A DNA stretch of 64,000 nt from Bacteroidales bacterium (GCA_049317265.1 JBMOIP010000012.1:4612-68611); one strand, 5' to 3'; shown: positions 60,601 to 64,000, counted from the stretch's first letter. Made by a program: numbers and translations. Notes: generated by a model not told the origin, from the sequence alone.

Positions 60601-61767
60601 TTAGTTGATTTGGTGCGCCGAATAGTATTTCAGTGTCGTGGTCAGGAATAGTACCAGGCCGGCAAGGGATATTACCGAGCAGACGAGGAATGCTCCCGCT
60701 ATCGAAAAGTACTGGGAAATCACACCTACCAAAACCATTCCGAGCCCCATTCCTAAATCCACCGACATGAAAAGGGTCGAACTTGCCGCGCCCCTCCGGG
60801 TGGCAGGCACCATATTGTTTATCATTGTTTGAAAGGTTGGAAATACCACTCCGTTGCCAAAGCCGAGAATCAACGCGGCAATATAAAATCCAGCCTGGTC
60901 CTGCCACATTGCCAGGAGCGGAAATCCGATGATCAGCAGCGACAGGCAGATGATGATTATAGTGCGTGGCCCGTTCCTGTCCAGCGCTTTCCCAATGGCA
61001 AACCTTGAACTGATGATCCCAATGGCATAGATCAGGAAAAAACCTGAGGGATTTTCCATACCGGTCTCATGTCCGAAAAGCGCCACGAAAGAGATCAGTC
61101 CGCCATACGTAAGCATGATAATCAACACATTGACAGCAGGAATGATGGTTCGTGTTTCAACCAGGTTTTTCCAGTTGAAATCGAGACCAGGCCTGGGCGT
61201 GTAATATGACCTGTAACCTATCATCGAAGCAAGTCCAAGGCTAACCAGGCTGATCAGGCAACCGGCCACGAACATGGCTGTATATCCTCCATACTGAAAG
61301 ATGATTGTTCCAACCATTGGGCCAAGCGCCATCCCTGCGGTGGTTGAGACCCCAAAAAAGCCAAATCCCTGTCCCCGCTTGGTTTCCGGAATTATATCAC
61401 CTGCCACCGTAGAATTGGAGGTTGTGGTCAGCCCCCAGGTTAACCCGTGAATGAAACGAACCACAATCATCGCCAGGACCGTTGTCGCCATAAGATACCC
61501 GTTAAACGTAAGGGCATAAATGACAAGTGAGAGCAGGAAAAGTTTCTTTCTGCCATACTTGTCAAGGCTGAACCCGCAGAAAGGCCTGATCATGATGGCA
61601 GCAACAACATAACTTGCCATGACCAGCCCGACCAGGCTCTCCGGAGCCTTCATTACATTGGAAATATACAATGGCAGCGTCGAAATCAACGAATAGTATG
61701 CACAACACATTAAAAAATTAGAGAGGGTAAGCAGGGTAAAGTCCCTGTTCCATAGCTTGTTATTCAT
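60601..61767 (-). CDS. MFS transporter
   Basis: About 12 TM helices, DKYGRK motif A, RFIHG, PETKRGQG; start MNNKLW lies just downstream of -7 element at 61777-61784. Confidence 0.92.
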   Translation of the reverse strand: MNNKLWNRDFTLLTLSNFLMCCAYYSLISTLPLYISNVMKAPESLVGLVMASYVVAAIMIRPFCGFSLDKYGRKKLFLLSLVIYALTFNGYLMATTVLAMIVVRFIHGLTWGLTTTSNSTVAGDIIPETKRGQGFGFFGVSTTAGMALGPMVGTIIFQYGGYTAMFVAGCLISLVSLGLASMIGYRSYYTPRPGLDFNWKNLVETRTIIPAVNVLIIMLTYGGLISFVALFGHETGMENPSGFFLIYAIGIISSRFAIGKALDRNGPRTIIIICLSLLIIGFPLLAMWQDQAGFYIAALILGFGNGVVFPTFQTMINNMVPATRRGAASSTLFMSVDLGMGLGMVLVGVISQYFSIAGAFLVCSVISLAGLVLFLTTTLKYYSAHQIN

Positions 61768-61851
61768 AAGAGCAGTCAAAAGTAGCGTTGGAGTTTCCAC
61801 CAATAAACGAAAGCAAAATTAGACAATTAACAAATTTTTAACAGAATATTC

Positions 61852-61881
61852 TTGAAACTTGCTGCACTCCTGCTAATTTTG
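61852..61881 (+). promoter_or_regulatory. Housekeeping promoter of the leader-ORF / His-rich / CDF unit
   Basis: TTG (61852-61854), 19 bp, TAATTTTG (61874-61881); ATG follows after 7 bp. Confidence 0.65.
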
Positions 61882-61888
61882 CCATTCC

Positions 61889-62191
61889 ATGAAACAATTC
61901 AGAAAAGCCAATCTGAACCTTCTTCTAATCCTGTTTTCCATAGTTTGCCTGGGAATGAAGGTTTATGGCATGCCCGGGACCCATTTTCATTACGAGGGAA
62001 CCTCCACCGAAGCACCTGCCTCATGCCTCTCCTTCAATTCAGATATACACTCGGGGGATGATGACCAGGTTGTTTCAGTAATTACTTTCAGCTCAGCTTA
62101 CATCCAGGGAGTAGCGTTTTCAACAGCTATCTCTGCGGTTGAAACACCCGGCTTTACCTTCGCCTTTTGGCAGCCTCCAAAATCATCCTGA
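61889..62191 (+). CDS. Small exported leader-type protein ending in FWQPPK (candidate arrest peptide)
   Basis: Signal-like N-terminus, His/Cys/Asp residues (HFH, C, H, DDD), terminal FWQPPKSS; first ORF of a metal-transport unit. Confidence 0.65.
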   Translation: MKQFRKANLNLLLILFSIVCLGMKVYGMPGTHFHYEGTSTEAPASCLSFNSDIHSGDDDQVVSVITFSSAYIQGVAFSTAISAVETPGFTFAFWQPPKSS

Positions 62192-62300
62192 CATAGTCCG
62201 CAAAGTTTACCTGCTTTCATTATCAGACAACCTATGTTTGATATGTATGCAATTATTGCTATAAATTCATGCCGATTTCACCAATTTAATACTTTGTAAA

Positions 62301-62705
62301 ATGGGACATAAGGATTATTTTAAGTATAATGATAGTCACCACGGACATCGCGAGAGACAGCATTACCATGGTGACAGGGATTACCATGGTGACAGGGATT
62401 ACCATGGTGACAGGGACTACCATCATGCAGCCGGGGAGTACCATCAGCAAAGAGGTTCCTTTTCCGGATTTAACAGCCTGCCCCCATGGAATGTAATCCT
62501 GGATAAATTAAAAAACAATAAAAGACTCAGACTCATTGCTGTTTTTGGATCCATTGTTTTCCTGGTTCTCATTGTGAGCCTGCTGTTTATCCTGATGCCA
62601 TTGTTCATCAAACTGATAAACTATATAAATCATAATGGCTTACAAAGTTTGCCGGATGCAATACTTGCTTTTTTGAATAAAATCTGGAAAGGTTCCTCCA
62701 TCTAA
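62301..62705 (+). CDS. His-rich single-pass membrane protein
   Basis: N-terminal HHGH...(YHGDRD)3-YHH, one long hydrophobic segment, amphipathic tail. Confidence 0.7.
   Translation: MGHKDYFKYNDSHHGHRERQHYHGDRDYHGDRDYHGDRDYHHAAGEYHQQRGSFSGFNSLPPWNVILDKLKNNKRLRLIAVFGSIVFLVLIVSLLFILMPLFIKLINYINHNGLQSLPDAILAFLNKIWKGSSI
62362..62423 (+). repeat. In-frame 18-bp tandem repeat
   Basis: ATTACCATGGTGACAGGG x3 perfect, plus partial ACTACCAT. Confidence 0.95.
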
Positions 62706-62803
62706 ATGCTGGCGCGGCCGTTTGTCCCTGGAGGGGAAGAGAATGCCCTTCCGGGGATTAAAATAAAAACAGTTCAATCCATGGAAACAGGAAAGGAATA
62801 AGT

Positions 62804-63679
62804 ATGAAAAACAGGATGGAAATTGAAAAAAAAAGAGTAGCCGGCGTATCGGTGATCGCCGCTTTCTTTCTAACAGGGTTCAAACTGGCAATCGGGCTGA
62901 TCACAGGAAGCCTTGGACTGTTGTCAGAAGCGCTTCACTCGGGGCTGGACCTTGTCGCTGCGATAATTACCTGGTTCTCTGTCAGAATTTCTGACACCCC
63001 TCCAGATAAAAACCATCATTTCGGGCATGGGAAAATCGAAAATTTCTCAGCCTTGATTGAAACCTTCCTTTTGCTGATCACTTGTGCATGGATTATTTTT
63101 GAAGCGGTTCACAGACTGGTAAGCGGGAACACAAAAATTGAAGTATCCATTTTTAGTTACCTCGTGGTTCTCACCTCCATTGCAATTGATATTGCCAGGT
63201 CAAGGGCGCTGTACAAAGTCGCAAGAAAATACAACAGCCAGGCCCTGGAGGCCGATGCACTGCACTTTTCAACCGACATCTGGAGCTCGGCAGTTGTTTT
63301 GCTCGGACTGATCCTCGCGCAGTTTGGTTGGTTTTTTGCTGATTCTGTCGCAGCACTGGCTGTGGCATTCATTGTTTTGGGTGTATCCTGGAGGCTAGGA
63401 AAACGGGCCGCAGATGTGTTGCTCGACAGAAGTCCTGCACCCCTGGTGGCAATCATAGAATCGCTGCTCAATCAATCGCATGGAATAATACGGTATCACG
63501 ATCTTAAAGTAAGGACATCCGGGGCAGAGAACTTCATTGAAGTGACAGTTCACATGGAACCCGGACTTTCACTGGTTGCAGCCCATGAAATATCGAACCA
63601 GATCGAACAAAAAATAGCTGAGGTCCTGCCCCGATCCCATGTTCATATTCACCTTGAACCAGACAGGCACCAGTCCTGA
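62804..63679 (+). CDS. Cation diffusion facilitator (FieF/CzcD-like) metal exporter
   Basis: EALHSGLD (HxxxD) and ALHFSTD (HxxxD) site A, PDKNHHFGHGKIE, C-terminal dimer domain with HIHLEP. Confidence 0.93.
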   Translation: MKNRMEIEKKRVAGVSVIAAFFLTGFKLAIGLITGSLGLLSEALHSGLDLVAAIITWFSVRISDTPPDKNHHFGHGKIENFSALIETFLLLITCAWIIFEAVHRLVSGNTKIEVSIFSYLVVLTSIAIDIARSRALYKVARKYNSQALEADALHFSTDIWSSAVVLLGLILAQFGWFFADSVAALAVAFIVLGVSWRLGKRAADVLLDRSPAPLVAIIESLLNQSHGIIRYHDLKVRTSGAENFIEVTVHMEPGLSLVAAHEISNQIEQKIAEVLPRSHVHIHLEPDRHQS

Positions 63680-63698: not shown

Positions 63699-64000
63699 CT
63701 ACCGCTTATAGGTATACATCCTGTGGCACCCCGGCGAACAGGAACCGCCACTGTCGGCCGGCAGGTAGTTAAGAGGCAAATCCCAGGATCCAAAAGGAGT
63801 CTTCTCAATGATAAGGTGCTTCCGTTTTGTTGCGTGAACATCGTGGCATATACTGCAGCTCCGCCCCTTTTCCCCATGCAGGTGAACATAATGAAGGTTC
63901 CGCTCCCCACTCCTGAAGGATGTTGAGGTTGAAGTCGTTTCGAGTTCCAGCAGGTCACTGTCATGACACTCCCAGCAAATGGCATAATTGTCTTTCTTAC
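63699..64000 (-). CDS. Multiheme c-type cytochrome, 3' end only
   Basis: Absent from the ORF track. Frame from 63998 reads KKDNYAICWECH...NLHYVHLHGEKGRSCSICHDVH...GGSCSPGCHRMYTYKR*: two CxxCH and one CxxxCH. Confidence 0.88.
   Translation of the reverse strand, partial: KKDNYAICWECHDSDLLELETTSTSTSFRSGERNLHYVHLHGEKGRSCSICHDVHATKRKHLIIEKTPFGSWDLPLNYLPADSGGSCSPGCHRMYTYKR

Follow-up and report, generated by a model that had tools for sequence, protein, structure and literature searches.

The 64,000-nucleotide (nt) stretch of DNA analysed here (the window) came from a Bacteroidales bacterium (GCA_049317265.1, JBMOIP010000012.1:4612-68611) and contained a three-gene locus whose first open reading frame (ORF), ORF1, was studied as a candidate metal-sensing leader. 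An earlier note, made from the sequence alone, had proposed that ORF1 arrested the ribosome close to its own end and in this way controlled a His-rich membrane protein and a cation diffusion facilitator (CDF) exporter. The proposed gene order was confirmed. ORF1 occupied 61889-62191 (+, 100 codons) and combined a signal-like helix, an acidic/His cluster and a WQPPK tail. It was followed after 109 nt by ORF2 (62301-62705, +), whose 134-aa product had an N-terminal part rich in His, Tyr and Asp, a single hydrophobic span and a conserved C-terminal NG...W.G motif, and after a further spacer of 98 nt by ORF3 (62804-63679, +), which encoded a divalent-cation exporter of the CDF family, FieF/YiiP type. 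A divergent MFS transporter lay upstream of the locus, and no better or longer ORF was found over the ORF1 stretch on either strand.

ORF1 and its relatives

The protein encoded by ORF1 began with MKQFRK and a 17-residue hydrophobic stretch. Residues 1-27 (61889-61969, +), comprising the basic N-region, the hydrophobic helix and the sequence VYG, formed a putative signal peptide or signal anchor. Ligand-type residues followed, namely H32, H34, C46, D52, H54 and D57-D59, then Q60; both the signal-like N-terminus and the His/Cys/Asp residues of the earlier note were therefore present. Residues 51-60 (SDIHSGDDDQ; 62039-62068, +) made up a conserved acidic cluster and a candidate metal-binding site. 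The only cysteines were C20, within the signal helix, and C46, and neither a CxxC nor a CxxxC motif was present. Thus the description of ORF1 as a variant without CxxC was correct; what this subfamily had was a group of acidic and His residues that kept a constant distance to the tail. The C-terminus was indeed FWQPPKSS, with the two prolines at residues 96-97 of 100. The W94-Q95-P96-P97-K98 codons (62168-62182, +), a candidate arrest motif, were located two codons ahead of the stop (W 62168-70, Q 62171-73, P 62174-76, P 62177-79, K 62180-82; stop 62189-91).

ORF1 had no match in Pfam or NCBIfam. A word-indexed search of 5.8 billion proteins returned only the self-match, and among 1.84 billion representatives searched exhaustively with phmmer a single other protein reached E <=0.001 (E 6e-4). 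The family became visible only by six-frame genome searches and profiles. Six-frame searches of relatives recovered homologues of ~100 aa that were 20-36% identical and all ended in (F/V)WQPPK plus two residues. Profile matches were present in 28/301 genomes of the order and in 16/40 genomes of the genus. Exactly 100 codons were found in 17 of the 18 acidic-type copies from the genus, and these 18 ended with WQPPK (16 copies), WQPPN (one) or WLPPK (one). A WLPPD tail occurred once elsewhere in the order (L103:2007-2306, -). Judged from these sequences, the core of the tail was W-x-P-P, in which W and PP stayed and Q and K were replaceable. Natural tail variants were seen at four loci (L103, L128, L129 and L017), as WLPPD, WQPPN, WLPPK and a 99-aa ORF ending WLPPKA.

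The wider family was represented by an alignment of 25 acidic-subfamily sequences (A3). These relatives were only 13-35% identical to ORF1, and identity was low outside three short motifs. The invariant columns were only M1, W94, P96 and P97. As expected by the earlier note, WQPP was kept among the homologues: W and PP in 25/25 sequences, Q95 and K98 each in 24/25, while the last two residues of the tail varied. An acidic anchor column carried D, E or H in 25/25 sequences and was placed 34-37 residues ahead of W, the distance being exactly 34 in 17/25. The basic/hydrophobic N-terminal pattern was conserved as well. According to AlphaFold, run with the same 25 sequences, the sole confident element was a helix at residues 2-26, with a predicted local distance difference test score (pLDDT) of 92-97. 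The remainder of ORF1 was predicted as coil, with block-mean pLDDT of 43-52 over residues 31-90.

Both Pro positions of the tail used all four codons across the phylum. Since the Pro codons varied freely, selection acts on the tail peptide and not on the RNA. An RNA-level explanation of the motif, based on a UGGC/GCCA stem, was rejected: the stem was not kept across the phylum, where Pro97 was often encoded by CCT, CCC or CCG. By Pfam, ORF1 was not a member of the DUF2946/CruR family named in the earlier note, as hmmscan gave no match of ORF1 to DUF2946 (PF11162) at E <=1. In the ESM Atlas, the rank-18 cluster for ORF1 was labelled DUF2946/DUF6769 with only 105 shared features; we kept this as a lead and did not use it as evidence.

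The WQPPK tail in the genome and the phylum

In the 5.2-Mb genome that contains the window, only two copies of WQPPK were present in stop-to-stop frames of at least 90 aa (2.7 million residues), and both were located two codons before the stop of an ORF of ~100 aa. The second copy (C22:48519-48845, -) was of the DUF6660 type, with PCxD and CSPFCICSCC, and stood 124 nt ahead of a czcA-like RND pump (ACR_tran, 7e-244). The order-level profile search also picked up Cys-rich proteins that matched DUF6660 and ended in IWQPPK plus two residues; three of them (L026, L027 and L033) matched at 1e-8 to 3e-12. There was no Pfam match to DUF6660 for ORF1 or for its relatives L031, L020, L022, L013, L019, L015 and L005. 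When A3 was compared by hhalign with an alignment of 15 DUF6660-type leaders (A4), only the last 22 residues aligned (probability 97.4%, E 1e-11). These shared residues corresponded roughly to the part within the ribosome tunnel. PCxD and CSPFCxCxCC were invariant in all 15 A4 leaders and absent from ORF1 and A3. The last Cys of the DUF6660-type leaders was placed 37-42 residues ahead of W.

A degenerate DNA pattern for W-Q-P-P-K-x-x-stop was run over 401 genomes of the phylum and gave 61 matches in 51 genomes, compared with 13 matches for the reversed pattern used as a control. Reading them individually, we distinguished 37 small leader-like ORFs, 12 members of one unrelated family and 12 background-like matches, a number near the control count. 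A few of the 37 leaders lacked an ATG within the open frame; their assignment relied on the length of the frame and on the neighbouring gene. The 37 leaders carried at least five different ligand-rich N-terminal modules, including acidic/His, DUF6660 Cys, His-rich HQLFK...MHY and CCKK Cys-rich types. The next gene encoded an RND pump (ACR_tran) in 19 cases, a TonB-dependent receptor in nine, an HMA-domain protein in three, and a DUF3347 protein, an OEP protein or an ORF2-type protein in two cases each. Thus 35/37 stood directly before RND, TonB-receptor, HMA, DUF3347 or OEP genes, which bore out the idea that ORFs with this tail are found upstream of metal, efflux or TonB-receptor genes. On sequence grounds, ORF1 appeared to belong to a large group of Bacteroidota leaders that share only an export signal and the WQPPK tail.

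The unrelated family was found at 12 loci of other classes (L077-L091). Its members had ~137-212 aa, mostly 174, and ended in WKRxxWQPPK plus two residues (for example, L077:3055-3579, -). One scanned member matched DUF3108 over residues 25-160 of 174, with the tail beyond the domain, and the remaining 11 were grouped with it by eye. In 5/12 the stop overlapped or abutted the next start (gap -4 or 0). The next gene encoded a BadF/BcrAD-type ATPase in the one case scanned and MgtC or MsrA in others. We regarded this DUF3108-like family as a second, independent use of the tail, chance being unlikely.

Promoters, RNA pairing and downstream genes

A sigma-A -7 box with a perfect TAnnTTTG (TAATTTTG; 61874-61881, +) was located directly upstream of ORF1. 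This consensus was given in PMC7366714 and, in the part of PMC9723704 dealing with Bacteroidota sigma-A, the box was placed at -12 to -5. Since the box occupied these positions, it predicted a transcription start site (TSS) at ~61886 and a 5' untranslated region (UTR) of ~3 nt, so that the 100-aa ORF started almost at the TSS, just as the earlier note had it. A perfect box ended 4-9 nt ahead of the first ATG in 30 of the 61 distinct leader-like ORFs collected, and among the genus loci one was found close upstream of the leader ATG in 18/19. The near-leaderless start was thus, as far as sequence can tell, a family trait. For Bacteroides thetaiotaomicron, ~3.7% of the 5' UTRs were reported to be shorter than 10 nt (PMC7366714), and for F. 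psychrophilum 5.5% of the mRNAs were given as leaderless in the same part of PMC9723704. A second perfect TAnnTTTG was present at 62233-62240, within a 9-bp hairpin behind ORF1. The statement that no clear second promoter existed was therefore not literally correct. It did hold for a conserved one: a perfect box was present in 1/12 intergenic regions of the genus vs 1.13 expected from shuffles, and a conserved internal promoter at 62233-62240 was rejected as being at chance level.

A direct repeat, TTAACA-N5-TTAACA, was read from the sequence at 61827-61843 (+), ~43-59 nt upstream of the predicted TSS, and occurred at the same place in 15/19 leader loci of the genus. Genome-wide it had nine copies vs 3.7 expected; oddly, every copy was read from the + strand of its contig, the - strand having none. 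The repeat is probably a transcription-factor binding site, and its copies may form a small regulon. Three further copies (C1:311173, C20:3964 and C45:9133) also stood ahead of a TAnnTTTG box, the one on C1 before a gene for an 81-aa exported Cys/Lys-rich protein. In two relatives, L005 (78-1378, +) and L003, a sensor-kinase fragment was encoded just upstream of the leader, and L005 additionally had a response regulator with a receiver domain, which was assigned to the LytTR type by eye. These kinase and regulator genes were candidates for the factor that binds TTAACA.

The 9-bp hairpin (62221-62243, +) had a 5-nt loop and was reproduced in both minimum free energy (MFE) and centroid folds, in agreement with the earlier note; hairpins of other sequence were found at a similar place in relatives. 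The MFE fold of 62152-62325 also contained a predicted long-range pairing between a weak 5' arm (62179-62206, +) and a 3' arm (62291-62321, +) that covered the ORF2 start codon (62301-62303). A second, G+C-rich hairpin of 13 bp (62724-62758, +) stood between ORF2 and the CDF gene and was followed by an A-rich, not U-rich, run; the 111-nt stretch containing it (62700-62810) folded at -34.2 kcal/mol (z -2.51). This hairpin could serve in RNA processing or stability, or act as a partial terminator. Intrinsic terminators after ORF1 or ORF2 were rejected, there being no U run behind either hairpin, and an Rfam search of 61700-63000 gave no match at E <=1.

At many loci, the last codons and the stop of the leader paired with the sequence just ahead of the next start codon, with inner hairpins enclosed. 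We examined this with a footprint test in which positions -12 to +15 around the first Pro codon were forced to be unpaired, a footprint 30 nt further upstream serving as the control. Over 59 pairs of leader and next gene, the energy needed to open the next start was lowered by a mean of 2.1 kcal/mol vs 0.13 for the control (Wilcoxon p 4e-6, which overstates the significance since the loci are related). In a shuffle test, 19/59 loci were better than 95% of their shuffles. In a matched-arm test, the arms of the same locus gave -7.55 kcal/mol vs -4.74 kcal/mol for arms of different loci (permutation p 1e-4), and a locus's own partner was within the best three in 19/56. At the window locus, the footprint lowered the opening energy of 62291-62321 by 2.3 kcal/mol vs -0.45 for the control footprint. 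Taken together, pairing between the leader end and the next start was supported across the superfamily and weak at the window locus.

Several sequence elements recurred in the spacers of the genus. A TTTTAATAC-like element was conserved 12-20 nt upstream of the ORF2 start (62283-62297 in the window; also L118, L125, L128, L134 and others), a recurrent hairpin of the CCATTTG-AAAC-AAATGG type was seen farther upstream of ORF2 in several relatives, and a CNCAAGTT block was located 10-25 nt past the leader stop. None of the three showed covariation.

The product of ORF2 was a His-rich one-pass membrane protein with three HGDRDY repeats. It matched no family in Pfam or NCBIfam, its nearest clusters in the ESM Atlas were unnamed, and the word-indexed search returned one relative. 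An ORF2 profile gave 12 strong matches (E <1e-10) in the 301 genomes of the order. Each of the 12 was preceded on its own strand by a W(Q/L)PP leader, which was the adjacent gene in nine cases and was separated by one to three genes in the other three. ORF2 was the next gene in 14/17 genus loci with downstream sequence. By contrast, the genus loci examined had a CDF gene behind ORF2 in the window genome only. The conserved target, from these comparisons of gene order, was thus ORF2 and not the CDF gene. The earlier view of an efflux unit as the target was right about the association with CDF genes, which was real, and needed correction as to the conserved partner. Tail-bearing leaders stood beside CDF genes in three other genomes: directly ahead of the CDF gene at L020 and L023, and just behind it at L111. 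Further genes in these units encoded P-type ATPases that carried Cation_ATPase_C (going by Pfam, of the Ca/Mg kind), Zn_peptidase_2, VTT/DedA, a His-rich Zn-ribbon protein, DUF2231, rubrerythrin and a protein of ~145 aa without a Pfam match.

ORF3 matched Cation_efflux (PF01545, 5e-44), ZT_dimer (PF16916, 3e-18) and TIGR01297 (2e-70; 237 bits vs a cut-off of 82), and its nearest solved structure was FieF (5e-38). It reached no equivalog cut-off in NCBIfam, so its metal specificity was not fixed by family models. Aligned to the FieF structure, ORF3 had His at the position of the first Asp of the YiiP site in transmembrane helix 2 (TM2). His at this position goes with Zn/Cd/Co transporters.

Proposed ribosome arrest and alternative readings

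The reading that we favour, with a probability of roughly 60%, is that ORF1 was a cis-acting regulatory leader of the CutF/CruR kind which worked by ribosome arrest and was not a structural protein. It would probably sense metal during its own synthesis. What the computations established is that ORF1 is a conserved frame whose tail is modular and keeps a fixed spacing to the acidic cluster, together with its gene neighbourhoods and promoter geometry, the absence of a predicted fold beyond the signal helix, and RNA pairing across the superfamily. Export, pausing, metal binding, the identity of the metal, and the direction and route of control are what we infer.

The proposed sequence of events is as follows. 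Transcription would begin ~3 nt ahead of the ORF1 ATG, and on such a near-leaderless mRNA the translation of ORF1 would be closely coupled to transcription. The N-terminal signal would direct the nascent chain to the membrane or the translocon. The ribosome would then pause at W94-Q95-P96-P97, when the P site would probably be occupied by Pro96 and the A site by Pro97. During this pause, ~37 residues would separate the acidic/His cluster (residues 51-60) from the peptidyl-transferase centre and place it just beyond the mouth of the tunnel, where a bound divalent metal could change the pull on the chain and hence the length of the pause. The pause length would in turn set the expression of ORF2 and probably that of the CDF gene, either by opening the RNA pairing around the ORF2 start or by keeping Rho off the 109-nt spacer. 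Genes for both Rho and EF-P were encoded in the genome. The pause might act on ORF2 through an RNA switch that is weak or shifted, or through protection from Rho. Because the targets looked like buffering or efflux genes, an excess of metal would most likely prolong the pause and switch the downstream genes on, following the CutF logic. Among metals we favour Zn; Mn, Fe, Co or Ca are also possible. Features that bear on the metal are the carboxylate/His (non-thiol) ligands, the His-rich ORF2, the His at the TM2 site of the CDF protein and the Ca/Mg kind of P-type ATPase in sister operons.

To our knowledge, the only metal-sensing leader peptides worked out so far are CutF and CruR, which come from two Proteobacteria and respond to copper via cysteines. 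Similar to CutF, ORF1 was short and stood first in its operon, with a putative Sec-type signal, a ligand motif in the part predicted to be exported, a Pro-Pro near the C-terminus and a short spacer to a metal-detoxification gene. The tail of ORF1 was WQPPK, whereas that of CutF contains PPP, and an acidic/His cluster without CxxxC and without a DUF2946 match took the place of the cysteines. The window host also differed in lacking Shine-Dalgarno-led initiation and in its near-leaderless mRNA, and the target was a His-rich membrane protein and a CDF exporter instead of a multicopper oxidase. In Rhodobacter capsulatus (cutFOG), stalling on CutF was described as opening a stem over the cutO ribosome-binding site (main text of PMC9973294; bioRxiv 10.1101/2025.02.05.636593). 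Such an opening of RNA that hides the next start is thus known for CutF, whereas the stem at the window locus was weakly supported.

CruR (Bp2923 of Bordetella pertussis) resembled ORF1 as the first gene of a metal operon, in having its motif two to three residues before the stop, in being predicted as unstructured and in its long spacer to the next gene (162 nt vs 109 nt for ORF1). The spacing between ligand and Pro-Pro was conserved in both: CruR keeps its CXXC-to-RAPP distance, as stated in the relevant section of PMC9426467, and the ORF1 family kept 34-37 residues in 25/25. Unlike the RAPP and CXXC of CruR, ORF1 had WQPP, with the invariant Pro-Pro three to four residues from its C-terminal residue, and an acidic/His cluster. 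According to PMC12992588, toeprinting of CruR found the ribosome halted with one Pro codon in its P site and the other in its A site. Copper was reported to relieve the stalling, with Rho-dependent termination before the uptake receptor gene, and the signal peptide was dispensable (from the sections on CruR in PMC9426467 and PMC12992588). The sign of control at the window locus would probably be opposite to that of CruR, because the targets here looked like efflux or buffering genes.

The DUF6660 (PF20365) proteins, which are small, Cys-rich and from Bacteroidota, shared with ORF1 the C-terminal module (S/A)(I/V/F)WQPPK(I/L)(S/G), the size, the signal-like start, the near-leaderless promoter and the position as first gene before metal genes, but ORF1 had neither the profile match nor PCxD and CSPFCxCxCC, and only the last 22 residues aligned. 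Our literature search found no paper on DUF6660 or WQPPK; matches to WQPP or QPPK were unrelated. Compared with the RAPP-like arrest peptides (SecM, ApdA, ApdP, ApcA and the RQH family), ORF1 had in common a C-terminal x-x-P-P near the stop, a small exported protein upstream of a presumed target and a variable sensor part. The motif of ORF1 started with W-Q, in contrast to R, Q or H followed by A or G in the motifs listed in the parts of PMC12992588 and PMC10987492 on these peptides, and its type stood before metal genes instead of genes for Sec/YidC components. Other clusters of Bacteroidota upstream ORFs were described in that part of PMC10987492 as ending in Pro (NSP-stop, NAP-stop) before secA/secDF, not in WQPP.

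The earlier note had called the system plausibly undescribed, and this was true only in part. According to the main text of Ozturk et al. 2023 (PMC9973294), 5,334 CutF-like proteins, filtered by size, signal and C-terminal PP, included 19% from Bacteroidota (40% when normalised), with OEP, ACR_tran and TonB-like neighbours. To pass the filter given there, a protein had to be <150 aa long, start with a signal, have PP among its last 15 residues and be encoded no more than 1,000 nt from a neighbour on the same strand. ORF1 falls within it, with 100 aa, PP at 96-97, a basic and hydrophobic N-terminus and ORF2 109 nt downstream. The general idea of such leaders in Bacteroidota is thus already in print. 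Neither WQPP nor DUF6660 was named in the same main text, nor was an acidic type or a neighbour of the CDF or His-rich kind. Added here are the 22-residue module that the leaders share, the acidic type of sensor, the family of ORF2, promoters that leave almost no 5' UTR and the test with matched arms.

A number of observations weighed against ribosome arrest at ORF1. The MFE fold at the window locus depended on the fold window, and the pairing of 62179-62206 with 62291-62321 was gone when the fold started at 62165, 13 nt later. The fold had a z of -1.25, which was not significant, the duplex compared with shuffles had p ~0.10, and the locus's own arm ranked 19th of 56. Among eight close relatives the footprint effect was 0 to 0.8 kcal/mol. 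RNAalifold found no shared structure in nine genus spacers, returning only the 4-bp UGGC/GCCA stem, which is encoded by the W and P codons and showed no covariation. Moreover, WQPP without K was present inside three long ORFs of the genome (six WQPP in 2.7 million residues), and WQPP is therefore not excluded from ordinary proteins. It also lies outside the arrest motifs that have been tested (RAPP, RGPP, RAPG and RAGP), and a plain Pro-Pro pause may be relieved by the EF-P of this genome. The DUF3108-like family showed that the tail need not mark a leader, and the tail may be a general translational pause element or have a role at the peptide level. The conserved TTAACA repeat suggested transcriptional control that could explain regulation without arrest. 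Finally, a strong hairpin parted the CDF gene from ORF2.

A fairly unlikely alternative is that ORF1 was a real small metal-binding protein, exported or membrane-anchored, which acted as a chaperone or, as has been proposed for CzcI, as a sensor in trans, with WQPPK as a functional peptide motif such as a docking, degron or processing site. Its signal-like N-terminus, its conserved acidic/His residues and a frame kept open at a fixed length would all suit such a protein. So would the occurrence of the same tail on the DUF3108 family, which is clearly no leader, and the main text of PMC9973294 discussed CzcI and other CutF-like proteins that lack PP as metal-sensing regulators. On the other hand, no fold was predicted beyond the signal helix, and identity fell to 13-35% outside three short motifs. 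A 22-residue tail carried by several unrelated N-terminal modules, ahead of RND, TonB-receptor, HMA, CDF and ORF2 genes, is more readily explained by a universal machine such as the ribosome than by one specific docking partner. The variable last two residues argued against recognition of the C-terminus, and in one third of the loci the tail codons paired with the next start region.

It is rather improbable that ORF1 was a translated leader without metal-tuned arrest, with transcription controlled by a factor on the TTAACA repeat and Pro-Pro giving a constitutive slow finish that aids coupling or mRNA stability. The fixed place of TTAACA-N5-TTAACA in 15/19 genus loci, the response regulator and sensor-kinase fragment just upstream in L005 and the weak evidence for an RNA switch within the acidic subfamily pointed in this direction. 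However, the fixed spacing of 34-37 residues between the acidic cluster and the tail, the signal peptide and the recurrence of different ligand-rich modules before the same tail would then be left unexplained, and transcriptional control is in any case compatible with arrest. That ORF1 was a chance open frame within a long 5' UTR, as the missing Pfam and NCBIfam matches and the near-empty word-indexed and phmmer searches might suggest, has a negligible probability and, at the level of sequence, is already contradicted by 18 open homologues in the genus (17 at exactly 100 codons despite heavy divergence), an invariant tail peptide with variable codons and a promoter box directly ahead of the ATG.

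Going beyond ORF1 as an arrest leader, we tentatively hypothesized, at somewhat less than even odds, that WQPPK plus two residues and a stop was a Bacteroidota-specific portable arrest module distinct from RAPP, carried by at least five unrelated exported ligand modules on near-leaderless mRNAs. In the same hypothesis, the acidic type would be the first nascent-chain sensor of a hard or borderline divalent cation (Zn, Mn or Ca rather than Cu), controlling the ORF2 family and CDF or P-type ATPase exporters. If the WQPPK tail does stall ribosomes, it would be a new arrest motif. Such switches would then exist in a phylum without Shine-Dalgarno initiation and on near-leaderless mRNAs, and nascent-chain sensing would be extended to non-thiol ligands and hence to metals beyond copper. 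A stalling tail would also offer a first clue to the function of DUF6660, the ORF2 family and many 'hypothetical' first genes of the RND, TonB-receptor, HMA and CDF operons of Bacteroidota that annotation pipelines leave blank.

At the very end of the window, behind the CDF gene, an open-ended ORF with three CxxCH motifs was located on the opposite strand (63699-64000, -) and ran past the window end. Judged by its translation only, it looked like a multihaem c-type cytochrome.

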